A stretch of DNA of 64,000 nucleotides from Escherichia coli. GTDB lineage: Bacteria; Pseudomonadota; Gammaproteobacteria; Enterobacterales; Enterobacteriaceae. The stretch lies in the NCBI RefSeq assembly GCF_044324875.1, contig NZ_CP172185.1. The stretch is one strand, 5' to 3'. Within the stretch, counting starts at the first letter, position 1; each line of letters begins with the position of its first letter. Below the pieces are notes generated by a model. The model did not search any database. It saw only the letters and a program-made list of their open reading frames with translations, and had not been told where the DNA came from. Positions 9,447 to 61,745 of the stretch are shown one piece after another. A program made the position numbers and the translations under genes.

Positions 9447-12233
9447 TTAGTGCGCCTGATCCCAGTTTTCGCCACTCCCCACTTCCACCAGCAACGGCAC
9501 ATCCAGACGGGTACAGTTTTCCATCAGTTGATGAATCTGCTTCGCGACGGCATCGACATCATCTTTATGAACTTCAAATACCAGTTCATCGTGTACCTGC
9601 ATGATCATACGCACACGCGGTTGCTCAGCCTGTAGCCACGTATCAACGGCAATCATTGCCCGTTTGATAATGTCGGCGGCGGTTCCCTGCATTGGCGCGT
9701 TAATGGCTGCACGTTCAGCCGCTGCACGACGAGCACCATTGCTGGATTTGATATCCGGCAGATACAGACGGCGTCCGTCCAGCGTTTCAACGTAGCCCTG
9801 CTCTTTCGCCTGAGCACGGGTGCGTTCCATATACTCCAGCACGCCAGGGTAGCGTTCGAAGTAAAGGTCCATGTACTTCTGCGCTTCTTTACGTGGAATG
9901 TTCAATTGCCGCGCCAGACCGAAAGCACTCATGCCATAAATCAGACCAAAGTTGATCGCTTTCGCGCTACGGCGTTGCTCGCTGGTGACGGTTTCCAGTG
10001 GCAAACCAAACACTTCTGCCGCCGTTGCCCGGTGGATATCTTTTCCTTCCGCGAATGCGGTCAGCAAGCCTTTGTCACGCGAGAGATGCGCCATAATGCG
10101 CAGTTCAATCTGCGAGTAGTCCGCTGAGACAATCACATAATCCTCTGGCGCAATAAACGCCTGGCGGATACGACGACCTTCTTCGTTACGCACCGGAATG
10201 TTTTGCAGGTTAGGATCGGTTGACGATAAACGTCCCGTTGCAGTTACTGCCTGGTGATAAGAGGTATGCACACGCCCGGTTTTCGGGTTGATCATCAGCG
10301 GCAGCTTGTCGGTGTAAGTCGATTTCAGCTTCGCCAGACCACGATACTCCAGAATCACTTTTGGCAACGGATAGTCCAGCGCCAGTTCTTCCAGTACCTC
10401 TTCCGACGTTGACGGCGCGCCACCTGGCGTTTTCTTCAGCGGTTTAATGCCCTGTTTTTCAAACAGAATGGTTTGTAACTGCTTGGTGGAAGAAAGATTA
10501 AACTCCTCACCTGCAATTTCATGCGCTTTCTTTTCCAGCTCAACCAGACGAAGAGTGAGCTCTTCAGAATGATTGTGCAGCACTTTCGGATCGATCTTCA
10601 CACCGTTACGTTCAATGCGTGAAAGCACCGGCACTAGCGGCATTTCGATATTCTCGAAGACGTTCAACGGCCCTTTGTGTTTTTGCAGATCCGGCCACAT
10701 TTTCAGATGCAGCTGCAAGGTGACATCTGCATCTTCGGCGGCGTAACGTCCGGCCTCTTCCAGGGCAATCTGGTTAAAGGTCAGTTGATTTTTACCTTTA
10801 CCAGCAATCTCTTCAAAAGTGATGGTTTTGTGCTTCAACCAACGTTCCGCGAGGCTGTCCATATCGTGACGCCCGGCAACGCTATTGAGAATGTAGGACT
10901 CCAGCATGGTATCAAATGCAATCCCACGCAGCTCAATGCCGTAATTCGCCAGAATACCGCGATCGTATTTCAGGTTTTGCCCGACCTTCAGCGCCTTTTC
11001 ATCTTCCAGCAGCGGTTTTAGCAACTCGAGTGCACGCTCGCGAGAGATTTGATCGGGCGCATCAAGATAATCATGAGCAACCGGAATATATGCCGCTACG
11101 CCTGGCTCGATAGCAAAAGAAAGCCCGACCAGGTTAGCAGAGATGTTATCAAGGCTGTCGGTTTCGGTATCAAATGCAAATACCGGCGCTTTTTCCAGCT
11201 TCGCAATCCACGCTTTCAGTGTTTCTTCATCAAGGATGGTGACGTAGTTGTCATAAGAAATCACCGTTGCCGTCACTTCTGGTGCTTCGTCTGCAACACT
11301 GGTTTCCTGTGGCTTCGCGGCTGGTTTTGCCCCTTTGGCCTGTAACCATTTGCCCGCTTCGACATCAGCAGTCCAGCGTTTGAACTCATACTTTTTGAAC
11401 AGCCCCAACAACTCTTCCGCTGCCGGTTGCTGCACTTCCAGTTGTTCGCAGGTCAGCTCCAGTTCAACGTCGGTTTTAATCGTCGCCAGCTGGTATGAGA
11501 GATAAGCAACTTCTTTGTTTTGCTCGAGCTTCGCTGCCATTGTTTTCGCGCCACGGAAGCTCAACCCGGCAATTTTTTCTGGCTCGGCATACAGCGTATC
11601 CAGTCCGCCAAGACCTTGCAGCAATGCCTGTGCGGTTTTTTCACCGACGCCCGGTACGCCTGGAATGTTATCAGAGGAGTCACCCATCAGCGCCAGGAAG
11701 TCGATGATCAATTCTGGCGGCACGCCGTACTTATTCACCACCTCTTCCGGTCCGAGGATGGTATTCGTCATAGTGTTGATAAGCGTAATATTTGGCGTCA
11801 CCAGCTGCGCCATATCTTTATCGCCAGTGCTGATCAGCACCGGACGCCCGGCTTTTTCGGCTTCGCGCGCCAGAGTACCGATAACGTCGTCCGCTTCTAC
11901 GCCAGAAACCGCCAGCAGCGGCAGTCCCATCGCTTTAACCATCGCGTGCAAAGGTTCGATTTGTGCACGCAGATCGTCCGGCATTGGCGGGCGATGTGAT
12001 TTGTAATGTTCAAACAGTTCATCACGAAAGGTTTTTCCCTTGGCGTCAAAGACCACCGCTGCATGCGTCGGTTTATATTGCATGATCAGACTGCGCAGCA
12101 TGTTGAGGACACCATACATCGCACCGGTCGGCTCGCCTGCGCTGTTAGTCAGCGGGGGAAACGCGTGATATGCGCGATAAAGATAAGATGAACCATCTAC
12201 AAGGATAAGTGGATTTTGGGGGATCTGAACCAT
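9447..12233 (-). CDS. polA: DNA polymerase I
   Basis: 928-aa ORF with 5'-3' exonuclease, 3'-5' exonuclease and polymerase domains (e.g. [23 protein letters not shown]). Confidence 0.98.
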
Positions 12234-12596
12234 AATGTCCGTGCCTGTTTATCAGATTATGGGTAAAGGATGCCACAGACAGGATGAAAACATGAGTTTT
12301 TCACCGCTTTTCGTGAAAATCTTTTGTAGATCTTCTGGATCGCTCGCAAATCGTCATGTGGATAACTTTGTGCATAAATTATTTACATCGCTTTTAATTT
12401 ATTATCATGCTTTTTACAGCATGATGTTTGTCTTTGTTTTTCATGAAGTTAAAAATAAGACCATCCCTAATGATTGAGATAATGGGATTTTTTCTAATGT
12501 GGATAGATATGAATTATTTTTCTCCTTAAGGATCATCCGTTATTTGGGTCGTTTTCTGCTAAAATCTGCGCCTTGCGCTTCTTTAGCGCACTGTCT

Positions 12597-13529
12597 ATGG
12601 CTAACTTTTTGAATAAATTCATTATGACGAGAATACTCGCTGCGATAACCCTTTTGCTGAGTATCGTATTGACCATTTTGGTCACTATTTTTTGCTCCGT
12701 CCCGATCATCATTGCCGGGATTGTAAAACTATTGCTTCCTGTGCCAGTCATTTGGCGAAAGGTTTCGCGTTTTTGTGATTTTATGATGTATTGCTGGTGC
12801 GAAGGTCTGGCGGTATTACTGCATCTGAACCCACACCTGCAATGGGAAGTTCACGGGCTGGAAGGGTTAAGTAAGAAGAACTGGTATCTGCTTATTTGTA
12901 ACCACCGTAGTTGGGCAGATATTGTCGTACTGTGCGTGCTGTTTCGTAAGCACATTCCGATGAATAAATATTTCCTCAAGCAGCAACTGGCCTGGGTGCC
13001 TTTTCTTGGCCTGGCGTGCTGGGCGCTGGATATGCCGTTCATGAAGCGTTATTCCCGCGCTTATTTATTACGTCATCCGGAGCGACGTGGTAAAGATGTC
13101 GAAACCACTCGGCGTTCTTGTGAAAAGTTTCGCCTGCATCCCACCACCATTGTCAATTTCGTTGAAGGCTCCCGTTTCACGCAAGAAAAACATCAGCAAA
13201 CCCACTCCACTTTTCAAAACTTGTTGCCACCAAAGGCGGCAGGCATTGCGATGGCGCTAAATGTACTGGGTAAACAATTCGATAAACTGCTTAATGTTAC
13301 GCTGTGTTATCCGGACAATAACCGTCAGCCGTTCTTCGATATGTTAAGCGGTAAACTGACGCGAATTGTCGTACATGTGGATTTGCAGTCTATTTCCGAT
13401 GAGTTACATGGCGACTACATCAATGACAAAAGCTTTAAGCGCCATTTTCAGCAATGGCTGAACTCACTGTGGCAGGAAAAAGACCGGCTTCTGACGTCGT
13501 TGATGTCATCACAGCGGCAGGACAAGTAA
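12597..13529 (+). CDS. yihG: Putative acyltransferase (PlsC-like)
   Basis: ORF with N-terminal membrane segment and the acyltransferase NHRSWADI motif; start chosen at MANFLNKF. Confidence 0.85.
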
Positions 13530-13535
13530 ATTTTG

Positions 13536-13561
13536 CTCGCCTCTGAATGAGCAGAGGCGAG
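13536..13561. terminator. Hairpin between convergent yihG and yihF
   Basis: ctcgcctctg / cagaggcgag inverted repeat; no strong U-run. Confidence 0.35.
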
Positions 13562-13569
13562 TGAGTATT

Positions 13570-15000
13570 TTAATGAACAAAACGTCCGGCACGAGACATA
13601 AATTCTTCTTCGCTCATCTCCTGTCCGTTAAAAGCAACTTTACCCGGTGTATAACGCAGTTGCAGCGAGGCGGTATTGTTGTCAATCGTGATTAACTGAA
13701 ACATCTGACCTAAGGTCATCATCCCGCTGATTTGTTTATCAGCCTGCTTTTGCGCTTTTTCCGCATCCATTCCTTCAGATAAATTAAGCTGTTTTGCGAT
13801 TTCTGTGGCGACATTAAGCGGTAATTTCACATCAAAATTGAGCGATTTAATATCTTTGTTTGTGGATGATGAAGATTTGGCTGGGTCGGCAATACTGATA
13901 TCCAGATTGGCATTTAGTTCGCCGAGTGCGTTCTTCCATCTTACCGGTTGTTTAATGGTCGGCTCACTTTTTTGTAATAACGGTAAATACTCTTTGAACA
14001 ATGCAGCATTCACTTCTTGCAGAGCAACTTCATCGTTTGCTAACTCAGGGTGTGCAGCAAGCTGCTTCTGCATCGCAATGTTATACTGGATGATAAATTG
14101 GCGCACCGCTGAGGGATCAATAGATTCAGCAATCAATGACCACTCACCACTACCGAGTTGCTGATTCCCTTTTGTTAACTTATCAAGTTCGTAGGTCAGA
14201 TTGACATTGATATAATCTTTGTCTTTAACGCGATCCAGCCTGGTTTTTGCAACGAAAGCATCGATTTGGGCAACGTCTTCCCCGTGATTGATAATGTTAA
14301 TCTGATTAAATTTCGACTCGCTTTCACCAACCGGAAATTTCTTTTCTTCTAATCGCGCCAGAGAATCAATGGTAAAACTTTTCGCCGTTACTTTGTTCAT
14401 TGGTGATAATTGCAGAACAATATCTTCGACTTTGCCTTCAATATCCAGGTTAGACAATGAACTACCATCACCATTAAAAGTAAACTGGCCCTTACCAAAG
14501 GAAAACTTTCCATACTCTGCAGGGGCAACATCTAATGTCGTGGAGAATGAGCTACCAAACGCGAACCTCAATGTCGCTTCCACGGGCGATTTATTTTTCG
14601 CGGCGATAAATAGCGGTTGTGTCAGTTCATTATTCACTAAGTTCACTTTTACCGCTGCCAGTACTGGGATGACATTACCATGCATTAACATTGTGATGGG
14701 CAACGGACCGTGCTCAACATCCACATCAAATGCAACTTTCTGGCCTGGCTTGATATTGAGATCGGGTGTACCGTTATCAAATGTCATTTGCATTTGAAAA
14801 CGAGAATTAAAAAAGCCTTTGTCAAAATTTTTATAACTTAACGTCATATCGTAGGCATGTTCACCTTTCTTTTTAGCATCGTTAAAATCTTTAATAAATT
14901 TTTCGACACCAGGCTGAATTTGCGTACCTGTGTACCATGTGCCACCGCCCCAGATTACGGCTAACGCAACAATAACACCTGTAGCTGACTTACGTATCAT
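13570..15000 (-). CDS. yihF: DUF945-family protein YihF
   Basis: ORF with N-terminal membrane/signal segment; start chosen at MIRKSATGVIVALAV (476 aa). Confidence 0.85.
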   Translation of the reverse strand: MIRKSATGVIVALAVIWGGGTWYTGTQIQPGVEKFIKDFNDAKKKGEHAYDMTLSYKNFDKGFFNSRFQMQMTFDNGTPDLNIKPGQKVAFDVDVEHGPLPITMLMHGNVIPVLAAVKVNLVNNELTQPLFIAAKNKSPVEATLRFAFGSSFSTTLDVAPAEYGKFSFGKGQFTFNGDGSSLSNLDIEGKVEDIVLQLSPMNKVTAKSFTIDSLARLEEKKFPVGESESKFNQINIINHGEDVAQIDAFVAKTRLDRVKDKDYINVNLTYELDKLTKGNQQLGSGEWSLIAESIDPSAVRQFIIQYNIAMQKQLAAHPELANDEVALQEVNAALFKEYLPLLQKSEPTIKQPVRWKNALGELNANLDISIADPAKSSSSTNKDIKSLNFDVKLPLNVATEIAKQLNLSEGMDAEKAQKQADKQISGMMTLGQMFQLITIDNNTASLQLRYTPGKVAFNGQEMSEEEFMSRAGRFVH

Positions 15001-15107
15001 ATAAATATTCCCTGATAAAACAGCAAAACTTTGAATATCCACTTATGCTGAAATAATGTCCAGCGGCAGGATGCATTATCAGAATGTATTTATATTTATT
15101 AAATAAT

Positions 15108-15134
15108 AAAAAAAGCCCGTGAATATTCACGGGC
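15108..15134 (-). terminator. Intrinsic terminator downstream of dsbA
   Basis: gcccgtgaatattcacgggc hairpin with a U-run on the minus strand. Confidence 0.6.
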
Positions 15135-15154
15135 TTTATGTAATTTACATTGAA

Positions 15155-15781
15155 TTATTTTTTCTCGGACAGATATTTTACTGTATCAGCATACTGCTGC
15201 ACAAAAACATCCATATTGCTGGTATCCATACCCTGCGGATTCAGCTGATATTTACCGTTAACAAACATCGCCGGAACACCACGCAATTGCACGTCAGCTG
15301 CAGCTTTTTCCTGCTGAGCGACCAGGGATTTCACCACGAAGCTGTTCCATGCCGCGTCGTACTCTTCACCTTTAATACCTGCGTTGATAAATACATCGCG
15401 GATATCAGATGCTGAACGAATAGTCTGGGTTTTCTGTACGCCTTCAAACAGCGGAACAGTGACTTTGTCTTCCACGCCCAGTGCCATCGCCACAGCCCAT
15501 GCCTGAGTCAGATCTTTGCCCAGGTCACCACCCATGAAGTTGACGTGGTATTTAGTCATCTTCACGCCTTCCGGCAGTTTTTTCTTCACGTTATCAGAAA
15601 TATGCAGAACTTCTTCAAACTGATAGCAGTGCGGGCAGAAGAAAGAGAAAAACTCCAGCACTTGCGGCGCGCCAGCAACTGGTTTTTCCAGGGTAGTGTA
15701 CTGTTTACCATCTTCATACTGCGCCGCCGATGCGCTAAACGCTAAAACTAAACCAGCCAGCGCCAGCCAAATCTTTTTCAT
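15155..15781 (-). CDS. dsbA: Periplasmic thiol:disulfide oxidoreductase DsbA
   Basis: 208-aa ORF with signal peptide and the CPHC active site ([13 protein letters not shown]). Confidence 0.97.
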
Positions 15782-43471: not shown

Positions 43472-43862
43472 TTTCCTCTTAGTCTATATTTGAGATGGTG
43501 AGTGAACGAGTGCGTTTTGCTGCCATCTCTGTCCCCCAAAAAATAATCAGTATGAATTGATTGGAGAGCACGACTCCGCTATTTGACCTTAAGAAAGTCG
43601 GCAAGTAATAGTCATAAGTGAGTCTCTTCACTGGCAGACACCTTAGAGATTTACCATCAACTCCCATTCTCAAACAAACATTAATTATTATCAACACATT
43701 CACATTAATTATAAATTATCTCAGACCTTCCTGATAAAAAGATATTAAAGTGAAACATTTTGTTTTTCACATTTTAGTTCATCCCTTTTAGGCGTAAATA
43801 AAGGTAAAAAATAACAATACTATTTTTCTTTCACAAAAGAATTAACAAAAGGTTTTTCAAGG

Positions 43863-44996
43863 ATGAGTGATATTATTTACCTGAACATAACCGGAGAACA
43901 ACAAGGATGTATTTCCTCTCGTTGTGGAACGAGCGCATCAATAGGTAATCGCTGGCAGATTGGCCATGAAGATGAAATCTTCGCGTTCTCGCTCTCTAAT
44001 AGTATTACGAATACAGGCAAAGGGTCACAATTGCATGGCCTTAGTTTCTGTAAATTGATTGACAAAAGCTCCCCGTTACTTATTAACGCTATTAACAATA
44101 ACGAGCAGTTGTTCATGGAGTTTGACTTCTATCGGATCAATAGATTTGGTCGATGGGAGAAATATTACAACATTCAACTTCGCGGCGCGCTCTTATCAGC
44201 AATCAATCACCTGTTTACTGAGAACAATCTGGATACAGAAACCATCACTGTCAGTTATGAATATATACTCTCCAGGCATCTGATTGCTAATACTGAATTT
44301 AGTTATTTGGCATTTCCCGATAACTACAACCGTCTGTTTATACCACGGCCAAAAACTAAAGATGATAATGGCCTCAAAACACTCAATAGTAAAGCGGTTG
44401 GCAGACTGCTTGCTGCTGGCGGCATATACAATGGGAATATCGAAGGATTCAGGGAAACAGCAAACAAGTTGGGAGGAGATGCACCTGCTGGTTACGATCA
44501 AGTTATGGATAACAAAGGGTTACTCATCGCTGGTGCTTCAATAGTTGCTGGAGTTGTTCTGGGAAGAATGAGATTCCCTGATTTGGAATCACTTGAGCAT
44601 TTCGGAGCCAGAGGAGCAGTATCAGGAAGACCATTTAATCCCGACCTTGCCGGTGGTCCAATTGAAAACCTGACGATAGATGGCGTAACAATCAACAGGG
44701 AAGGTATCGCTATTGTTGAAAAGCATATCTCCAGATTTGATCATGATCCAGCTAATGATGTAATGATTTCAAGGCTAAAGAAAATAGCAAATAAAGAATT
44801 GCTTCCTGAAAAATACGATCTGAACTACTATACTCATGAATGTCGCGAGTATCAGCGTTATTGTAATTTAGGATGGGAAACAGGTGAACCGAAAGGTTTA
44901 GATGGATATGAATTATGGAATAATGTACATACTGCAACTCTAGAAGACTTTAAAATTAAAGATACTGACTTATTTCATCCGGATGCAAAAAAATGA
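43863..44996 (+). CDS. Hcp-domain protein with C-terminal extension (candidate Hcp-fused type VI secretion effector toxin)
   Basis: 377-aa ORF in AT-rich DNA. N-terminal ~155 aa follow the Hcp family pattern (YLNITGE...LHGLSFCKLIDKSSPLL...YYNIQL), alignable by eye with E. coli Hcp. The C-terminal ~220 aa have no family I can assign. Family call is by recall, not by search. Confidence 0.7.
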   Translation: MSDIIYLNITGEQQGCISSRCGTSASIGNRWQIGHEDEIFAFSLSNSITNTGKGSQLHGLSFCKLIDKSSPLLINAINNNEQLFMEFDFYRINRFGRWEKYYNIQLRGALLSAINHLFTENNLDTETITVSYEYILSRHLIANTEFSYLAFPDNYNRLFIPRPKTKDDNGLKTLNSKAVGRLLAAGGIYNGNIEGFRETANKLGGDAPAGYDQVMDNKGLLIAGASIVAGVVLGRMRFPDLESLEHFGARGAVSGRPFNPDLAGGPIENLTIDGVTINREGIAIVEKHISRFDHDPANDVMISRLKKIANKELLPEKYDLNYYTHECREYQRYCNLGWETGEPKGLDGYELWNNVHTATLEDFKIKDTDLFHPDAKK

Positions 44997-45250
44997 CGAT
45001 TACGATAGTTGAATTTAACGTGCTGAAAGTTATGGCTGAGAAAGATATTGACTGGAGCTGGATGGTGCTGGATCGTACTTTAGCTATACGAAATATTCCA
45101 GGATTTGGCAACGTAGCGAATATCGTAACAAAGCTGGTTAATCATGGGTTGGTTGATATCGTAAATGGTGAGGGCAACTCTAGACCACGCTACAGAGTTT
45201 CTCAATATGGATTGAATCTTATCAAAGAACAACAAGACAACCTCTTCTGA
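44993..45250 (+). CDS. Small hypothetical protein, candidate cognate immunity protein
   Basis: 85-aa ORF whose ATG overlaps the upstream stop (ATGA at 44993-44996); paralogue of the next ORF; conserved LDRTL-IR-IPGFGNV-NIV-KL--GLV block. Confidence 0.6.
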   Translation: MTITIVEFNVLKVMAEKDIDWSWMVLDRTLAIRNIPGFGNVANIVTKLVNHGLVDIVNGEGNSRPRYRVSQYGLNLIKEQQDNLF

Positions 45251-45309
45251 TCCAGCCATTACAGGAGCATGATTTACATTGTGATCTTTCAATAAGATAC
45301 TCATCAATT

Positions 45310-45570
45310 TTGGTACAGAATATCGTGATCACTAAAAATGAACTTAACGTGCTGAACGTTATGACTGAGAAAGATATAAACTGGAACTGGATGAATCTCG
45401 ATCGCACACTATCCATAAGGCAAATTCCAGGATTCGGGAATGTTGTTAACATTGTTAACAAATTAGCTAACGAAGGTTTGGTTATTATTGAGGATAGCGG
45501 GAATAAGTCTATGCCTCACTACCACGTTAGTGAAAAGGGATACAATCTCGTGCAACGTGAGAATAAATAA
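45310..45570 (+). CDS. Small hypothetical protein, paralogue of the preceding gene (candidate second or orphan immunity protein)
   Basis: 86-aa ORF with roughly 60% identity by eye to the 44993-45250 product, plus clear nucleotide similarity; track start is TTG at 45310, and an in-frame GTG at 45325 is an alternative start. Confidence 0.5.
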   Translation: MVQNIVITKNELNVLNVMTEKDINWNWMNLDRTLSIRQIPGFGNVVNIVNKLANEGLVIIEDSGNKSMPHYHVSEKGYNLVQRENK

Positions 45571-45676
45571 CGTAGCGTTGATTACTGAACGGAATCACTC
45601 AAAACTGTGTTTTGCGAAAAAAACGATTCGGTTATTTCTGCTCCTGAAGATCAGCTTCAATCTGGCACTCATGCAA

Positions 45677-45738: not shown

Positions 45739-48000
45739 TCATCCCCGACGCAAATTCTGCGCCGCCTGCACCATGTTCGCCAGTGCCGCGCGGGTTTCTG
45801 GCCAGCCGCGCGTTTTCAGGCCACAGTCCGGGTTGACCCACAGACGCTCTGCCGGAATGCGTTTTGCCGCTTTCTTCAGCAAGGCTTCAATCCATTCCAC
45901 GCTCGGTACGTTTGGCGAGTGAATGTCATAGACGCCAGGACCGATTTCATTTGGATAATCAAACTCTTCAAACGACTCCAGCAACTCCATGTCGGAACGC
46001 GAGGTTTCGATGGTGATGACGTCTGCGTCCAGCGCCGCAATCGAATCCATGATGTCGTTGAACTCGCAGTAACACATGTGAGTGTGGATTTGTGTGTCAT
46101 CTTTCGCCACGGCGGCGTTGATACGGAAAGCCTCCACGCCCCACTGGAGATAGGCATCCCAGTCGCCGCGACGCAGCGGTAAACCTTCGCGCAGTGCCGG
46201 TTCATCAATCTGGATGATGCCAATTCCAGCGGCTTCCAGGTCCGCCACTTCATCACGCAGCGCCAGCGCAATTTGTTTGGCGATGGTTTCACGGCTGACA
46301 TCTTCACGCGGGAACGACCAGCAGAGAATGGTCACCGGGCCGGTCAGCATCCCTTTCACCGGTTTGTCAGTCAGCGATTGCGCATACTTCGCCCACTCAA
46401 TGGTAATCGGTGCCGGGCGGCTAACGTCACCAATGACAATCGGCGGCTTCACGCAGCGGGAACCGTAGCTCTGTACCCAACCGTTTTGCGTAAAGACAAA
46501 ACCGTCGAGATGCTCGCCAAAGTATTCCACCATGTCATTACGCTCGGCCTCGCCATGCACCAGCACATCCAGACCTAAACGTTCCTGCTCAACAATGGCC
46601 TGCTTGATATGTTCCGCAATGCCCGTGCGGTAGTTGTTGGCGTCGAGATTACCCTTTTTGAAATCCAGACGCAGGGTACGAATTTCCGTGGTTTGCGGGA
46701 AGGAACCAATCGTGGTGGTCGGCCACGCGGGCAGTTTAAAACGCGCACGCTGGGCTTCAGCACGCACTTCATAGACATTCGCACGCTGACTGTCCTGAGC
46801 GGTGATCGCCGCCAGACGCTTTTCTACTGCCGGATTATGTACGCGGGTTGAGTGACGACGCGCCTGAATCGGAGCGCTCCACTCTGCCAGAGCAGCCGTG
46901 TCACCACTGTTCAGCGCATCGCGCAGCAGTGCCAGTTCATGACATTTTTGCAGGGCGAAGGCAAACCAGCTTTTCACTTCTGCATCAAGACGCGTTTCCA
47001 CGCTCAGGTCGATGGGGCTGTGCAGCAGTGAGCAGGAAGATGCCACCCACAAATCGCGTTTGCCGACAATGTCCTTAATTTGCGCATACTTCTCGGTAAG
47101 ATCGGCGCGCCAGACGTTACGACCATTGATCAGACCCGCAGACAGCAGCCAGTCAGAAGGCAGACGCTTGTGCAGTTCAGCAACGTCATCTTTACCATGT
47201 ACAAGATCGACATGCAGACCCTGAACAGGCAGCGCAGTAATCGTGTCGAGATTTGGCGTTACGCCTTCAAAATAGGTGGTCAGCAGCAGTTTCACCTGTC
47301 CCTGGAGCGCGTCGTAAGCGGGTTTGTATGCGTCCAGCCACGCCTGCGGTAGTTCCAGTACCAGCGCTGGTTCGTCGATCTGTACCCACTCAATACCGCG
47401 TTTTGCCAGTTCTGCCAGCACTTGCTGATAAATCGGAAGAATGTCGTTCAGCAGGCTCAGGCGATCAAACTGTTCACCTTTCACTTTACCCAGCCACAGG
47501 TAGGTAACCGGCCCCAGCAGCACAGGTTTCACCTTGTGGCCCAGCGCCAGCGCCTCGTCCACTTCCTCCAGCAGCTGCGTCCAGGTCAGTTTGAACTGTT
47601 GGCCTTTAACGAACTCCGGCACCATGTAGTGATAGTTGGTGTTAAACCATTTGGTCATTTCCGCTGCCGCCGCAGGTTCACCAGTCGGCGCACGTCCACG
47701 ACCAATACGGAACAGGGTGTCGATATCTACCGAACCATCTTTGTTCTGATGACGTGGCGGAACATTACCCAGCAGCAGACTGGTGGTCAGTACATGATCG
47801 TACCAGGCAAAATCGCCCACCGGCAGCAGGTCGATACCCGCCTGCTTTTGTTGATCCCAGTGACGGGCACGTAATTCACGCCCAACCGCCAGCAGTTCTT
47901 CACGCGTGGAGTTCCCCGCCCAATAACTTTCTTGCGCTTTTTTCAGCTCGCGACGCAGGCCAACGCGAGGGAAACCGAGGGTGTGATTCAATATTGTCAT
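45739..48000 (-). CDS. metE: Cobalamin-independent methionine synthase
   Basis: 753-aa [32 protein letters not shown]... Confidence 0.97.
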
Positions 48001-48235: not shown

Positions 48236-49189
48236 ATGATCGAAGTAAAACATCTGAAAACGCTACAAGCGTTGCGGAACTGCGGCTCGCTCGCAGCCGC
48301 TGCGGCGACGTTGCATCAGACGCAATCCGCCCTGTCTCACCAGTTTAGCGATCTGGAACAACGCCTTGGCTTCCGGCTATTTGTGCGTAAGAGCCAGCCG
48401 CTTCGCTTTACACCGCAGGGAGAAATCCTGTTGCAACTGGCAAATCAGGTGCTGCCGCAAATCAGCCAGGCACTGCAAGCCTGCAATGAACCGCAGCAGA
48501 CGCGTCTGCGCATTGCCATCGAGTGCCATAGCTGTATTCAGTGGCTGACGCCCGCGTTAGAAAATTTCCATAAGAACTGGCCGCAGGTCGAGATGGACTT
48601 TAAATCGGGCGTGACGTTTGACCCGCAGCCTGCGTTGCAACAGGGCGAGCTGGATCTGGTGATGACGTCAGATATTCTGCCGCGCAGTGGCCTGCATTAT
48701 TCGCCGATGTTCGATTATGAAGTGCGTCTGGTGTTGGCACCTGACCATCCGCTGGCGGCGAAAACGCGTATTACACCGGAAGATCTCGCCAGCGAGACGC
48801 TGTTGATTTATCCGGTGCAGCGTAGTCGACTGGATGTCTGGCGGCATTTTCTTCAGCCAGCAGGCGTCAGCCCGTCACTGAAAAGCGTCGATAACACCTT
48901 ATTGTTGATTCAGATGGTTGCCGCGCGGATGGGTATTGCCGCACTACCGCATTGGGTGGTGGAGAGTTTTGAACGCCAGGGTCTGGTGGTGACCAAAACC
49001 CTGGGCGAAGGCTTGTGGAGCCGACTGTACGCCGCCGTGCGCGATGGCGAGCAGCGTCAGCCGATTACAGAAGCGTTTATTCGCTCAGCGCGCAATCACG
49101 CCTGCGATCATCTGCCGTTTGTGAAGAGCGCGGAGCGACCCACTTACGATGCACCCACAGTGAGGCCAGGATCACCAGCGCGCCTGTAA
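48236..49189 (+). CDS. metR: LysR-family transcriptional activator MetR
   Basis: 317-aa ORF with N-terminal HTH ([24 protein letters not shown]). Confidence 0.96.
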
Positions 49190-49976
49190 TAAACGTTGGC
49201 CAGTGCGGCTGTTGGTGCCAGATAGCCAGGTTTACCAGCAGCCCTGCCGGAACGTGCATATTATTCATAATGCCCAGCGTTCCGGCGTCCACCTGCGTCG
49301 CGCCGTAGTTCCACATAAAGTAGCCAATCCCGGAAGCCACCACGCCAAGAAACACCAGAATGCCCCATTGCAACGTGGTTTGCGGCATTTTCTGCGCATT
49401 TCCCAGCAAGAACCATGCAATCACCGCCACCAGGAACGCGCCAAGATAGAACCACGCAAAGGCGTTATGCTGCGGCATCGGGCGAGTTTCCATCAGACGT
49501 TTGTAACCCACCATGCCGATGGCAAAAGTGATATTGGAGAGCTGCACCAGCAGCAGGCCAGTCCAGAAGTGGTCGGTGACCTGATCATAGCGAATAATCC
49601 CGGCACCAATCACCGCCAACAAGGCGCTAAAAGCATAGCCCCAGCGCAGACGGCGCTGACTCATGATGTCATAAATCAACGTGATGTAGAGCGGCGTCAG
49701 TACGGTGAACAGCAGCAGCTCGGAGACCGTCAGGTAGAGATAGGCGCGGAAACTCAGCATATACATCACGCCGAGCTGCATCGCGCCTACCAGCATATAC
49801 AGGCCGACCGTTTTCAGGCTATTGCCACGGGTACGCAGAAACGGCAGAAAAACCAGTGCCGCCAGGCCAACGCGCACCAGCACTGCAAAATAGCTATCGA
49901 CGTGCCCCGCAAGGTACTCGCCATAAAAGCTAAAGGAGAAGGCCCACAGAATCGTGGTGATGATAAGTAGCGCCAC
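49077..49976 (-). CDS. yigM: EamA/DMT-family transporter YigM (biotin transporter BioP)
   Basis: 299-aa polytopic membrane ORF; its 3' end overlaps the metR 3' end. Confidence 0.9.
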
Positions 49977-55320: not shown

Positions 55321-56190
55321 TCAAAACAAGTCGTTTAGCATAACCCCTACACCAACGCGGGTCTGGTTGAAGTTATAGTCGATGAGCGATTCGCCGTAAC
55401 CGCTGTAAACCTGAGTATAAAGGCGCACATGTTTGGTGATCGGGTAACTTAAGCCTAACTCCGCGCCGCCGTAGCCCGTGTTCCAGTTGTACTGTCCTTT
55501 CGCACTCAACACCGCATCACCGAGGTGATAGCCAATTTTAAGCTGGTAGTAACCCATATATTTGGTGATATCCGGGTTATCGTCAGTATTACCCACCACA
55601 TACCACGGCTTCACTTCTACCAGCCAGTTACCGTTTTCTGCCATCAGGCGAGTATAAAGGCGGTTCCAGCTGCGGGAGGTCGGGTCTGAACGCCCGTTAG
55701 AGTCGTGGTTATACCCCATCTCCACATCGCGCAGCGTCCAACCTGCAAAACGGTAATCGGTGGCAAAACCGAGGAACAATTGCGGTTCGTAGTTGGTTTC
55801 ACGAAACGGTGAAGACTCTTCGCTATTGGACAGTTGCCACCAGGATTTTTGCGTATAAGACGCACCCAATACCGAGTTCGGGCCTAAAATCCCACGCCAC
55901 AGCGGAAATGCCAGGCTCAACTGAAACTTTACTTCATCCTTACGCGCATTTTCCGCCCAGTCGTAACTGGCAATCGCTTCTTTATTCAGATCGCTGGTTT
56001 GGGTGTAGATGAGGTAGTTGGTGTCATAAGGATAGAGCGTGAACGGATTGTCATGCTCCTGCAGCATATTGGCGATAATACTGCCACGCACCGCTGGCGC
56101 GTCATGCACCTCTTTCACCGTTGCCTCTTGTGCATATACTGCCATAGGCAACATAAACACCGGCAACAACCAGCCCTGCAGAGTCCGCAT
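55321..56190 (-). CDS. pldA: Outer membrane phospholipase A
   Basis: 289-aa ORF with signal peptide; recognised as OMPLA. Confidence 0.96.
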   Translation of the reverse strand: MRTLQGWLLPVFMLPMAVYAQEATVKEVHDAPAVRGSIIANMLQEHDNPFTLYPYDTNYLIYTQTSDLNKEAIASYDWAENARKDEVKFQLSLAFPLWRGILGPNSVLGASYTQKSWWQLSNSEESSPFRETNYEPQLFLGFATDYRFAGWTLRDVEMGYNHDSNGRSDPTSRSWNRLYTRLMAENGNWLVEVKPWYVVGNTDDNPDITKYMGYYQLKIGYHLGDAVLSAKGQYNWNTGYGGAELGLSYPITKHVRLYTQVYSGYGESLIDYNFNQTRVGVGVMLNDLF

Positions 56191-56873: not shown

Positions 56874-57764
56874 ATGGATGCAAAACAAACGCGGCAGGGC
56901 GTATTACTCGCTCTTGCCGCTTATTTTATTTGGGGTATTGCGCCAGCGTACTTCAAGCTGATTTACTACGTGCCCGCCGATGAGATCCTGACGCATCGCG
57001 TGATCTGGTCGTTTTTCTTTATGGTGGTGCTGATGAGCATTTGCCGCCAGTGGTCCTATTTAAAAACGCTGATTCAGACGCCACAGAAAATTTTTATGCT
57101 GGCAGTCTCTGCCGTGCTGATTGGTGGCAACTGGCTACTGTTTATCTGGGCGGTGAACAATCACCATATGCTGGAAGCGAGCCTTGGTTACTTTATTAAC
57201 CCGCTGGTGAACATTGTGCTGGGGATGATTTTCCTCGGCGAGCGATTCCGCCGGATGCAATGGCTGGCGGTGATTCTGGCGATATGTGGCGTGTTGGTTC
57301 AGTTGTGGACTTTTGGTTCACTGCCGATTATCGCGCTGGGGCTGGCGTTTAGTTTTGCCTTCTACGGCCTGGTACGCAAGAAGATTGCTGTTGAAGCGCA
57401 AACCGGCATGTTAATCGAAACTATGTGGTTGCTGCCCGTGGCGGCGATTTACCTGTTTGCTATTGCCGACAGCGCAACCAGCCATATGGGGCAAAACCCG
57501 ATGTCGCTGAATTTACTGCTGATCGCCGCCGGTATTGTCACTACCGTACCGCTGTTGTGTTTTACTGCGGCTGCGACACGCCTGCGTCTCTCAACGTTAG
57601 GCTTTTTTCAGTACATTGGCCCGACGCTGATGTTCCTGCTGGCTGTGACGTTTTATGGCGAAAAACCGGGTGCCGATAAGATGGTGACCTTCGCCTTTAT
57701 TTGGGTGGCGCTGGCAATTTTTGTGATGGATGCGATTTATACGCAGCGTAGAACGTCCAAATAA
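56874..57764 (+). CDS. rarD: EamA/DMT-family transporter RarD
   Basis: 296-aa polytopic membrane ORF. Confidence 0.93.
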   Translation: MDAKQTRQGVLLALAAYFIWGIAPAYFKLIYYVPADEILTHRVIWSFFFMVVLMSICRQWSYLKTLIQTPQKIFMLAVSAVLIGGNWLLFIWAVNNHHMLEASLGYFINPLVNIVLGMIFLGERFRRMQWLAVILAICGVLVQLWTFGSLPIIALGLAFSFAFYGLVRKKIAVEAQTGMLIETMWLLPVAAIYLFAIADSATSHMGQNPMSLNLLLIAAGIVTTVPLLCFTAAATRLRLSTLGFFQYIGPTLMFLLAVTFYGEKPGADKMVTFAFIWVALAIFVMDAIYTQRRTSK

Positions 57765-57858
57765 AAAATAAATATATTCTGAAAAAATATGCCGACTCTT
57801 GCATGAGAGTGGGCATATTGCCATGCTGACAGGAGACTCACACAAGGATGTAAAATTT

Positions 57859-58239
57859 ATGTTGCGTATATTTATCCCAACATCTAACGGTAAGATTTCC
57901 AGACGCCGTTATATATTTTCATTTATTTTAATAAATTTCATTTTTGCCTTTCTTATTATCTTTTTTAACGATGGGGACGCAGGTTTTCTTGTTATTGTCT
58001 CTACCATCGCACTCCATTATCTCGTCATCAACATAAATTGCCAACGACTCCGTGATAGTGGTTTCATATATATAAAAACTTATGTTTTTGGTACATTAGC
58101 AGTATATATCATCTCTATCATCACAATGATAGCCGAACATTTTGATTGTTCAGGCAATGGTTCGATGATTTTTTTGATTTGTTATTTTTCCACTTTCAGT
58201 ATGCTAATGCTTGCACCTACTGATTCATCAAAACAATAG
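57859..58239 (+). CDS. yigG: Inner membrane protein YigG
   Basis: Start chosen at [18 protein letters not shown]; AT-rich; three predicted TM segments. Confidence 0.75.
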
Positions 58240-58252
58240 TTATGGAGTATTT

Positions 58253-58633
58253 ATGAGTAAGGAGTATATGAACGATGGTTCATTAAGTGAAAAATGGAAA
58301 TACCGATTTAACTTTTATGATCAACATGGCTTTCCTGGATTCTGGGGGGCAACACCAGAATATAAAGCAGCATTTAAAACATTAAAAGTAAGACAACGAT
58401 TAACTATTCAAATGAATTTCATTGCTTTCTTCTGTTCCTGGATCTATTTATTTGTTCTGGGATTATGGAAAAAAGCAATTATAGTTCTATTACTTGGCAT
58501 TCTATCTCTATTTGTTGGTGCACTAATTGGCGTTAACATTCTGGGAATTGCCGTAGCAGCCTATGTTGCTGTTAACACGAACAAATGGTTTTATGAGAAA
58601 GAGGTAAAAGGGTTAAATACCTGGAGCCTTTGA
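58253..58633 (+). CDS. yigF: Inner membrane protein YigF (DUF2628)
   Basis: Start chosen at MSKEYMNDGSLSEKWKYRF; AT-rich; two TM segments. Confidence 0.75.
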   Translation: MSKEYMNDGSLSEKWKYRFNFYDQHGFPGFWGATPEYKAAFKTLKVRQRLTIQMNFIAFFCSWIYLFVLGLWKKAIIVLLLGILSLFVGALIGVNILGIAVAAYVAVNTNKWFYEKEVKGLNTWSL

Positions 58634-58640
58634 ATAACAG

Positions 58641-58678
58641 GTGGCTTAGCCAGGCTAAGCCACCGCTCTCGTTTTTTA
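58641..58678 (+). terminator. Intrinsic terminator after yigF
   Basis: ggtggcttagcc / ggctaagccacc hairpin followed by gctctcgtttttt. Confidence 0.6.
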
Positions 58679-59626
58679 CAACCAGTTCTTCCGCTTAAAG
58701 TACAAATACGGTGCCAGGCCCGCGAGGATCATAAAGATAATCGCGCCAGGGTAGCCGAAACTCCACTTCAGTTCCGGCATAAACTCAAAGTTCATCCCGT
58801 AGCTGGAAGCAACCAGTGTTGGCGGCAGGAACACGACGGATACCACCGAGAAGATTTTGATGATGCGGTTCTGCTCGATATTGATAAAGCCCATCGCCGC
58901 CTGCATCAGGAAGTTCACCTTCTGGAACAGAGATTCGTTATGCGGCAGCAGGGATTCGATATCTCGCAGGATTTCACGCGCCTGCTCCAGTTGACCACCC
59001 GGTAAACGCGCCTTGCGTACCAGGAAGTTGAGCGCGCGCTGGGTATCCATCAGACACAGGCGAACTTTCCAGCCGATATCTTCCAGTTCCGCCAGCGTGG
59101 AGAGCGCCTCGTCGTACTCATCGCCCTGATGCCCTTCCATAATTACCCGGCTCAACTGCTCCAGGTCGCTGTAGATATTTTCAATTTCATCTGCCAACTG
59201 TTCGATTTTGGTTTCGAACAGATCCAGCAGCAGCTCGTAGGCGTTACCGTCCACCATTGACTGGCTACGGGCACGCATACGATACAGACGGAATGCAGGC
59301 AGTTCACGCTCACGCAGAGTAAACAGACGACCATCACGGATGGTAAATGCCACAGTGGAGTTACCGGCGTGATCTTCCGCATCTTCAAAGAAGAAGAAGG
59401 AGTGAATATGCAGGCCGTCATCGTCTTCAAAGAAACGTGCCGATGCTTCGATGTCTTCCAGTTCCGGGCGGGTTGCCAGGCTCTGGCCAAGTTCAGATTG
59501 TACGCGCAGTCGCTCGTCGTCGTCCGGTTCGACAAGATCAATCCATACTGCATTTACAAGGGGTTGTGACTCTTCGACTTCCAGCCGGGTCAGTCGGTTA
59601 TTTTCCAGTTGAAATGCGCTCAGCAT
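58676..59626 (-). CDS. corA: Magnesium/cobalt transporter CorA
   Basis: Start chosen at [17 protein letters not shown] (316 aa); GMN motif (YGMNF) and C-terminal TM segments. Confidence 0.96.
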
Positions 59627-60842: not shown

Positions 60843-61745
60843 ATGAAAAAAACGCTCGCAACGTTATTTTTATTAACGTGTCTGGGATCATCATCCGCCT
60901 ATGCGGATAACGCTCTGATTTTACAAACTGATTTTAGCCTGAAAGATGGTGCCGTCTCGGCGATGAAAGGGGTCGCATTCGGCGTTGACCATAATCTTAA
61001 AATCTTTGATTTAACACACGAAATTCCACCGTATAACATCTGGGAAGGCGCTTATCGTCTGTATCAGACTGCCAGTTACTGGCCGCAAGGTTCGGTGTTT
61101 GTTAGCGTGGTCGATCCGGGCGTAGGCACTGACCGTAAATCGGTAGTGCTGAAAACCAAAAACGGTCAATACTTCGTTTCACCAGATAACGGTACGCTCA
61201 CTTTGGTGGCACAAACTCTGGGTATTGATAGCGTCCGGGAAATCGACGAAAAAGCTAACCGCCTGAAAGGTTCTGAAAAGTCATATACCTTCCACGGTCG
61301 TGATGTGTATGCCTACACCGGTGCGCGTCTGGCTTCCGGGGCGATTACGTTCGAACAGGTGGGGCCAGAGCTTCCTGCAAAAGTTGTCGAACTTTCTTAT
61401 CAGAAAGCCAAAGCAACAAAAGGTGAAGTGAAGGGCAATATCCCGATTCTCGATATTCAGTACGGCAACGTCTGGAGCAATATCAGCGACGAGTTGCTGA
61501 ATCAGGCAGGAATCAAACTCAACGACACGTTGTGTGTGACCATTTCCGAAGGTTCCCAGCAAAAATACGCAGGGAAAATGCCGTATGTCGCAAGCTTCGG
61601 CGATGTGCCGGAAGGCCAGCCGATGGTGTATCTGAACAGCTTGTTGAATGTTTCCGTGGCGCTGAATATGGATAATTTCGCGCAGAAACATCAGGTTACG
61701 TCTGGTGCTGACTGGAATATTGATGTGAAGAAGTGCGCTAAGTAA
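60843..61745 (+). CDS. SAM hydroxide adenosyltransferase (DUF62)-like protein with N-terminal signal peptide
   Basis: 300-aa ORF; MKKTLATLFLLTCLGSSSAYA looks like a Sec signal peptide; the mature part fits the DUF62 pattern (LQTDFSLKDGAVSAMKGV...VVDPGVGTDRK...SPDNGTL). Confidence 0.7.
   Translation: MKKTLATLFLLTCLGSSSAYADNALILQTDFSLKDGAVSAMKGVAFGVDHNLKIFDLTHEIPPYNIWEGAYRLYQTASYWPQGSVFVSVVDPGVGTDRKSVVLKTKNGQYFVSPDNGTLTLVAQTLGIDSVREIDEKANRLKGSEKSYTFHGRDVYAYTGARLASGAITFEQVGPELPAKVVELSYQKAKATKGEVKGNIPILDIQYGNVWSNISDELLNQAGIKLNDTLCVTISEGSQQKYAGKMPYVASFGDVPEGQPMVYLNSLLNVSVALNMDNFAQKHQVTSGADWNIDVKKCAK

Follow-up and report, generated by a model that had tools for sequence, protein, structure and literature searches.

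Between rarD and corA, the window, by which we mean the whole 64,000-nucleotide stretch of Escherichia coli DNA analysed (contig NZ_CP172185.1), carries the genes yigG and yigF. We are moderately confident that they form a two-gene AT-rich accessory operon encoding paired inner-membrane proteins, normally silenced and turning over by recombination in its flanks. The view of the pair as AT-rich, silenced, and horizontally acquired is already published; what is new here is the population structure of the rarD-corA slot and the evidence of exchange between species.

The window has the gene order of the E. coli type, recQ-pldA-yigI-rarD-yigG-yigF-corA-ysgD-yigE, and the gap between rarD and corA is filled by two adjacent same-strand ORFs. 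Megablast against 5,426 complete E. coli genomes identified these as yigG and yigF, the closest match being strain Ecol_316 (99.9%), with the K-12 derivative DH10B at 97.1%. RefSeq labels the two genes 'protein YigG' and 'DUF2628 domain-containing protein'. They are the same genes, at the same position, as yigG and yigF of K-12, and the window carries another allele of the common (A) haplotype. The features of the locus are as follows:

56874..57764, + strand: rarD, EamA-family transporter, left flank (Pfam EamA, E 3e-22)
57765..57858, + strand: rarD-yigG spacer, with a Shine-Dalgarno-like AAGGA at 57844-57848
57859..58239, + strand: yigG, 126 aa, predicted four-helix inner-membrane protein, putative distant relative of DUF805
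58240..58252, + strand: yigG-yigF junction of 13 nt, with GGAG at 58244-58247, 5 nt before the yigF ATG
58253..58633, + strand: yigF, 126 aa, DUF2628 membrane protein
58640..58664, found on both strands in a terminator scan: GC-rich hairpin of 11 bp between the convergent yigF and corA
58676..59626, - strand: corA, Mg2+/Co2+ channel, right flank (Pfam CorA, E 2e-56)

The 13-nt junction and the 11-bp hairpin after yigF indicate an operon. The hairpin, which is also present in the diverged haplotype A' described below and in E. albertii, has the appearance of a bidirectional terminator-like element. Elsewhere, the junction between the two genes is a 4-nt overlap in one locus (L098), 4 nt in another (L097), and 15 nt in Salmonella. 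An Rfam search of 55-62 kb of the window returned no RNA families.

The earlier note on this DNA had considered the starts of both genes uncertain, given that the ORFs are N-terminally extended. The extension was borne out, as the mechanical ORFs begin at TTG 57799 and TTG 58211, upstream of the true starts, but comparison with relatives leaves little real uncertainty. In yigG, an in-frame stop codon directly precedes MLRIF in E. whittamii, the E. coli allele L010 has Ile where the window frame has an upstream Met, and Atlantibacter and Enterobacter sp. E76 have a GTG start at the equivalent position, which together place the start at ATG 57859. In yigF, Met1 is invariant in 16 aligned sequences and Met6 is Ile in two orthologues; the start is therefore assigned to ATG 58253. 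Residues 1-126 of YigG align to positions 13-138 of the NCBIfam profile NF008474, which therefore carries an older start, 12 aa further upstream.

The pair was said to be AT-rich relative to rarD and corA, and its composition is clearly distinct from that of the flanks. GC content is 0.335 in 57859-58633 against 0.512 for the whole window, the lowest value in it, and between 57800 and 58600 it stays at 0.32-0.34, rarD and corA being at about 0.52; 775-bp spans this GC-poor make up 0.2% of the window, every one overlapping the yigGF locus. By gene, GC is 0.325 for yigG and 0.349 for yigF, with 44 proxy genes averaging 0.523 (sd 0.037), which gives z of about -5, and GC at third codon positions (GC3) is 0.30 and 0.29, compared with 0.568 (sd 0.066) for the proxy genes. 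Codon choice is aberrant as well. Of the Ile codons in yigG, 32% are ATA (5% in reference genes), and CTG supplies 0% and 13% of the Leu codons in the two genes (54% in reference genes); the codon-usage chi-square, taken per codon, reaches 0.97 and 1.26, the median being 0.17.

Such AT-richness might be a mere by-product of encoding hydrophobic membrane proteins, and hence uninformative on origin, since Ile, Phe, and Leu make up 38% of YigG, and FYMINK residues account for 45% and 38% of YigG and YigF. However, GC at second positions (GC2) of yigG and yigF, 0.34, is at the level of corA (0.33) and near that of rarD (0.39), itself a gene for a membrane protein, whereas GC3 is 0.63 in both flanks; with GC2 flank-like and GC3 low, the bias is not simply one of amino-acid composition. 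The AT bias sits in synonymous and first codon positions, beyond amino-acid content. In addition, Kosakonia orthologues encode the same fold at a nearly host-like GC3 of 0.54-0.61. The by-product reading is refuted by the GC3 and synonymous-codon results, and we give it next to no credence. The related description of both proteins as rich in Ile, Phe, and Leu fits YigG but not YigF, which at 28% is no richer than RarD (31%) or CorA (27%).

The anomalous composition could also mark a recently arrived mobile element, or a phage or plasmid remnant, and tblastn does give matches in 'plasmid' and 'phage' collections. However, the four plasmid records inspected (two from E. coli with shared protein accessions, one from Salmonella, and one from Kosakonia) carry the chromosomal context recQ-pldA-yigI-rarD-yigGF-corA-uvrD, and two further E. 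coli 'plasmid' records are 4.9 Mb long; the close matches from Escherichia, Salmonella, and Kosakonia are chromosomal segments or whole chromosomes filed as plasmids. The other plasmid matches are distant DUF2628 relatives of <60% identity, for the most part from Pantoea megaplasmids; the phage records consist of fragments of 1.6-3.5 kb that lack annotation, and IMG/VR yielded one distant match only. Searches around the locus revealed no flanking repeats, island boundaries, integrase, or tRNA, with no recombinase ORFs within 55.5-61.5 kb and no matching phage families, and a PHROGs scan of YigG, YigF, and the proteins of the alternative cassettes gave no match. With the pair syntenic across genera, a mobile origin of this kind is extremely improbable.

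The silencing of the locus is known from previous studies. In one study, the figure that exemplifies 'promoter islands' shows the yigF/yigG region (PMC3661553), yigF-yigG-rarD has been described as a small extended protein occupancy domain with two silent genes (PMC8282354), and yigG has served as an example of a horizontally acquired gene under H-NS silencing, with an intragenic promoter that is spurious and H-NS-repressed (PMC7229825). Extended protein occupancy over the locus is linked to H-NS in these works (PMC3661553, PMC8282354, PMC7229825), and according to this literature the operon would normally be kept silent by such occupancy. Like H-NS-silenced islets and 'promoter islands', yigGF is AT-rich, at third positions too, between conserved flanks of normal GC, and it shares with the islets a patchy distribution and evidence of transfer, H-NS silencing itself being taken from the literature alone. 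Unlike 'promoter islands', it had no excess of promoter sites in a simple sigma-70 consensus scan (two promoter-like sites against 4.2 expected), so that the 'promoter island' was not reproduced.

Beyond E. coli, the rarD-yigGF-corA arrangement was found in Salmonella Typhimurium, E. whittamii, E. albertii, Escherichia sp. E1V33, Superficieibacter, Atlantibacter, Kosakonia, Enterobacter sp. E76, and several further assemblies, one of which also has LacI and enolase-superfamily genes inserted in the slot. The distribution across the Enterobacteriaceae is thus one of presence in the rarD-corA slot of several genera and patchiness within E. coli; the genome scan used two peptide patterns only and missed Salmonella, so absence from other genera is not inferable from it. 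In the slot of the other enterobacterial genera found, yigG and yigF never occur apart. Identity to the window proteins in other species is 30-56% for YigG and 43-88% for YigF, compared with 92-99% for CorA and 84-99% for RarD, and the AT content of the pair differs from that of the flanks in every complete locus examined. yigGF is thus an old resident of the rarD-corA slot in part of the Enterobacteriaceae. The GC3 of the Kosakonia orthologues is near host-like, and acquisition from an AT-rich or distant donor is not demonstrable.

A further possibility is that the ORFs are not functional and that the locus is an AT-rich, H-NS-bound 'promoter island' with chance or decaying frames. The spurious intragenic promoters described for it (PMC3661553, PMC7229825), its silence in laboratory conditions (PMC8282354), its deletion in 17% of genomes, and the IS1 insertions in the slot would agree with this. 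However, comparisons with haplotype A', E. whittamii, Superficieibacter, Atlantibacter, and Kosakonia gave dN/dS values of 0.17-0.30 for yigG and 0.03-0.15 for yigF (flanks 0.00-0.11), several motifs are invariant, and ORF length (about 121-136 aa) and gene order are conserved across genera at 30-83% amino-acid identity. The structure predictions are confident, and YigF belongs to a broad Pfam family. Chance or decaying frames are therefore highly improbable, and dN/dS, length, order, and the AlphaFold2 (AF2) models show that yigG and yigF are genuine genes. Apart from the third E. coli haplotype (see below), no YigG-family gene was found without a DUF2628 gene behind it, the two overlapping by 4 nt at one extreme and lying 58 nt apart at the other. 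YigG and YigF are inherited as a pair and very probably also work as one.

YigG matches the NCBIfam equivalog NF008474/PRK11371 at 250.4 bits (cut-off 217). Its score against Pfam DUF805 (PF05656), 17.6 bits, lies below the gathering threshold of 25.7, and other YigGs score similarly (haplotype A' 22.1, Kosakonia 19.0, Superficieibacter 16.6), with no match for the third haplotype. YigG nevertheless resembles DUF805 proteins in length class, in four predicted helices, and in an RxRDxG-type motif after helix 2, and the sub-threshold matches of several alleles fall at the same profile positions. A YigG-family profile found 37 representatives among 1.84 billion proteins, and its weakest matches, true DUF805 proteins at E about 1e-4, are P0179 (27 bits) and P0181 (40 bits). 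Unlike DUF805, the YigG clade is tiny, and all members examined lie in the rarD-corA slot. This pattern fits a small, fast-evolving offshoot of DUF805 that falls short of membership. The AF2 model of YigG has four long helices (pLDDT 84.6).

YigF belongs to Pfam DUF2628 (PF10947), with a match of 40.7 bits (E 3.4e-10, threshold 23 bits) over residues 17-117, and one of 41 bits for the A' allele. When 16 sequences are aligned, among them Pseudomonas members at 40-45% identity, the motifs KW..RF.F, N..A, Y...LGLWKK, and N...Y.K are invariant; the N-terminal 50 or so residues are conserved and hydrophobic helices follow, which corresponds to the AF2 model (pLDDT 87.1), where a helical N-terminal region leads into long hydrophobic helices. 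No relationship between YigG and YigF is detectable by sequence. Neither YigG and YigF nor the proteins of the alternative cassettes matched anything in a PADLOC scan (E up to 0.1), and Foldseek searches of the PDB with both AF2 models returned nothing below E = 6. The description of both proteins as poorly characterised is upheld, and no family, defence-system, phage, or solved-structure match indicates a function.

Within E. coli, yigGF is present in 2,961 of the 5,426 complete genomes (about 55%), presence being scored as a megablast match to at least 80% of the rarD-corA segment. Junction-specific queries distinguished the following states of the slot:

yigGF only: about 2,660 genomes (49%)
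yigGF with a corA' fragment and DUF3289/DUF943, recognised by the yigF-corA'-DUF3289 junction: 299 genomes (5.5%)
rarD followed by about 88 nt of yigG and DUF3289/DUF943, recognised by the deletion junction: 928 genomes (17%)
third haplotype with corA' and DUF3289/DUF943: 1,433 genomes (26%)
IS1-disrupted or other: the remainder (about 2%)

The DUF3289 ('YPO3983')/DUF943 pair, found in the slot of 2,627 genomes, has been shown experimentally to be a colicin-M-like type VI secretion toxin with its immunity protein (PMC11148199). Like yigGF, it is an AT-rich two-gene cassette of the rarD-corA slot that includes a small membrane protein; unlike it, it is a separate insertion of unrelated sequence that can coexist with yigGF. 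Breakpoint mapping placed this insertion next to corA, where a duplicate of the corA 3' end marks it, and showed that the effector-only state is the combined form minus most of yigG, all of yigF, and corA'. A separate insertion and a deletion derivative rule out the two cassettes as simple alternatives. The duplication of the corA 3' end at the DUF3289/DUF943 insertion in other strains is seen in corA 3' pseudogene fragments in loci L003, L010, L011, L008, and L018.

The third haplotype encodes a 128-aa YigG homologue of 25% identity, without yigF, and, from the opposite strand, an unrelated membrane ORF of 104 aa, which had seemed DUF805-like by eye and gave no match to Pfam or to the YigG and YigF profiles. 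According to breakpoint mapping, it substitutes the exact interval from the last 11 nt of rarD to the corA 3' end. The left anchor for cassette recombination is rarD, which keeps 97-98% identity in every E. coli slot haplotype until 11 nt before its stop codon. The first 84 nt of the rarD-yigG spacer are common to the yigGF haplotypes and the deletion haplotype, and even genomes without yigGF align to positions 1-84 of the query at about 99%.

The yigGF cassette is itself deeply divided. Haplotype A', found in about 554 genomes, has about 80% DNA identity to A (77% for YigG, 70% for YigF), and the divergence is limited to 57821-58620 (64-88% identity), with flanks at 93-100%. Between the two, dS reaches 0.62 in yigG and 1.25 in yigF, compared with 0.08-0.18 in yigI, rarD, and corA. 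The A' yigF is 99.5% identical in nucleotides to that of E. albertii and the YigG proteins share 125 of 126 residues, although corA is only 93.7% identical between the same genomes; the cassette must therefore have crossed between species recently, through recombination in the flanks. In Enterobacter sp. E76 and Atlantibacter, the order rarD-yigG-yigF-corA'-rarD'-DUF3289-DUF943-corA was observed, and we infer that the tandem corA'-rarD' fits a circularised fragment of an alternative allele integrating by a single crossover in corA. The cassette thus turns over in two ways, through deletion and through homologous recombination in its conserved flanks, which also takes place between species, and E. 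coli is therefore polymorphic for several deeply diverged haplotypes. The description of yigGF in the earlier note as an older horizontally acquired pair consequently holds for its foreign-looking composition, its conserved housekeeping flanks, and its long residence in the slot. It does not hold as a picture of a static locus, given the presence of the pair in little more than half of the genomes, at least four haplotypes, and ongoing exchange with E. albertii.

With regard to function, we tentatively suggest that YigGF might be a membrane-embedded protective or immunity-like module against envelope-acting toxins of competitors, a reading that we consider unlikely although it is our best single guess. 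It derives from two Rhs contexts, the effector/immunity pair in the slot, and the deep haplotype diversity. Paracidovorax konjaci has two DUF2628 copies, which lie interspersed among fragments of Rhs C-terminal toxins and an Imm45 gene. In Pseudomonas delhiensis, the DUF2628 gene lies downstream of a full Rhs-AHH nuclease toxin gene, an Imm43/Imm11 gene, and a small zinc-ribbon membrane protein gene, and upstream of a weak SUKH-like gene. These distant DUF2628 genes thus lie among Rhs toxin and immunity genes in two genera, as extra or orphan immunity genes do, and the E. coli slot has a comparable haplotype diversity. Loss of an effector with retention of its immunity gene, as in Rhs arrays, is seen in the rarD-corA slot itself, in the orphan DUF943 of E. 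whittamii.

Several observations weaken this reading. Unlike Rhs immunity genes, yigGF adjoins no effector or toxin gene in the window, and most DUF2628 loci have no such context, the Rhs arrays accounting for two of about 70 distant loci. The nuclease-type toxins in both arrays already have cognate immunity genes (Imm43, Imm45), DUF2628 being an extra gene. DUF2628 genes from further afield (35-45% identity, in Pseudomonas, Pantoea, Proteus, and elsewhere) lack a YigG-like partner, and neighbour clustering of the approximately 70 distant loci found no partner conserved across genera. Furthermore, as DUF3289/DUF943 is an independent insertion, its adjacency to yigGF need not mean a shared function, and relaxed constraint on a gene that is rarely expressed could be enough to account for the fast evolution.

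The main rival to the immunity-like reading is that YigG and YigF are minor inner-membrane factors of envelope homeostasis, their diversity reflecting relaxed constraint on a mostly silent locus, which we rate as slightly less unlikely. Salmonella yigG deletion mutants attach more weakly to plastic and produce, and at higher chlorine stress S. Typhimurium yigG mutants do not grow, complementation being partial (PMC3579871). The same paper reports that serovar Enteritidis lacks yigG. These phenotypes point to general envelope physiology rather than immunity (PMC3579871), and the location within a silenced protein-occupancy domain (PMC8282354) and dN/dS values below 1 everywhere yet above those of the flanks are in agreement. 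However, the phenotypes are modest, serovar-dependent, and only partly complemented, and about 45% of E. coli genomes are without the pair. In addition, relaxed drift alone leaves two discrete haplotypes at dS 0.6-1.25 and the near-identical allele shared with E. albertii unexplained.

Two small polytopic membrane proteins in one tightly silenced and variably present operon could also represent a self-acting membrane toxin and its partner, of the holin/antiholin-like or toxin-antitoxin type, and yigF does contain two in-frame Met codons (M1 and M6), each after a Shine-Dalgarno-like motif. Met6 is not conserved, however, no homology to holin, toxin, or defence families was found, and a yigG homologue without yigF, as in the third haplotype, would be unexpected unless yigG were the harmless partner; we regard a self-acting toxin as very doubtful.

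More broadly, combinations of a YigG-like protein with DUF2628 might constitute an unrecognised class of two-component, immunity-like protective modules of the inner membrane against membrane- or periplasm-acting toxins of type VI secretion, Rhs, or bacteriocin systems, with haplotypes kept by frequency-dependent selection in E. coli and its relatives. This is a speculative extension that we think quite unlikely; if true, diverged haplotypes, including null alleles, would be spread across species by flank recombination. For the accessory operon itself, the population data mean that the K-12 'y-gene' pair is one allele of a multi-haplotype accessory slot. With a clean natural deletion in 17% of genomes, the slot supplies natural knock-out and allele-swap strains in which the DUF2628 and YigG-like proteins could be tested, and it is a tractable example of cassette turnover through flank recombination, without mobile-element machinery.

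The rarD-corA slot, which in E. coli haplotypes holds yigG-yigF and/or a DUF3289/DUF943 effector/immunity pair, has been remodelled in relatives of this species. In E. whittamii (locus L015, 4487-4975), yigG-yigF is followed by DUF943 without DUF3289; the 3' fragment of corA (corA') and DUF3289 have been deleted, leaving approximately the last 16 nt of the latter, and the immunity gene is kept while the effector is gone. In Enterobacter sp. E76 (locus L008, 5429-5910) and Atlantibacter subterranea (locus L018, 4432-4907), the 3' fragments of corA and rarD (rarD') abut one another between the two cassettes, a junction of the kind that a circularised rarD'-DUF3289-DUF943-corA' fragment would be expected to leave on integrating. 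Copies of IS1 also recur in the slot in different haplotypes, as seen in comparison locus L005 (4097-4794), where IS1 replaces most of the cassette, and in nucleotide search matches H3, H13, H27, and H94.

Variation in gene content was also observed beyond yigE, where the following gene comes after yigE:

60843-61745, SAM hydroxide adenosyltransferase-family gene (RefSeq label: SAM hydrolase/halogenase family)

This gene is present in the window and in comparison loci L001, L002, and L004, and is missing from L003, L005, and L094, in which yigE is directly followed by uvrD. It is a further presence/absence polymorphism, 2 kb from yigGF. Within pldA, which encodes an outer-membrane phospholipase, comparison of the window with a strain carrying the second, diverged yigGF haplotype (A') showed 85-93% identity at 55421-55921 and 97-99% in the adjoining sequence, suggesting a separate recombination tract or a diversifying segment.

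Genes of the yigGF type were also found in PLSDB records of circular "plasmids" of 94-141 kb (NZ_OY843411.1, NZ_OY757140.1, NZ_CP047533.1, NZ_LN868946.1, and NZ_CP019447.1). The three records inspected for context (NZ_OY843411.1, NZ_CP047533.1, and NZ_CP019447.1) all carry the chromosomal recQ-pldA-yigI-rarD-...-corA-uvrD region, and errors of assembly or labelling, or chromosomal circles that were excised, probably account for the "plasmid" records with yigGF. Two E. coli "plasmids" of 4.9 Mb are clearly whole chromosomes. A 1.6-kb contig (L012, CASFSC010000152.1) from a bin named "uncultured Alistipes sp." shows 96-100% protein identity to E. coli rarD-yigG-yigF-corA, and almost certainly represents bin contamination.

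Other compositional outliers were detected in the window, including several 775-bp spans with a GC content below 40% at approximately 12150-15450. The ORFs at the outlying positions are:

13570-15000, minus strand, 476-aa DUF945 ORF with low GC (0.415) and a GC3 of 0.40
49077-49976, minus strand, long ORF overlapping the next
49203-49970, plus strand, long ORF overlapping the previous one

The proxy gene taken from this overlapping pair deviates more in codon usage (chi-square per codon of 1.03) than any other in the window except yigF, despite a normal GC content, and the wrong strand may have been picked as the proxy.

A second low-GC islet (43600-45600, GC 0.34-0.44) lies a short distance upstream of a putative metE; the ORFs in this region are:

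43863-44996, 377-aa ORF; Hcp domain at the N-terminus (T6SS_HCP, E 3e-14), followed by a long C-terminal extension
44993-45250 and 45310-45570, pair of paralogues in tandem, 85-86 aa long, after the Hcp ORF
45739-48000, minus strand, 753-aa ORF resembling metE

The 377-aa product resembles an Hcp-fused type VI secretion effector, and the two small paralogues could be immunity genes.
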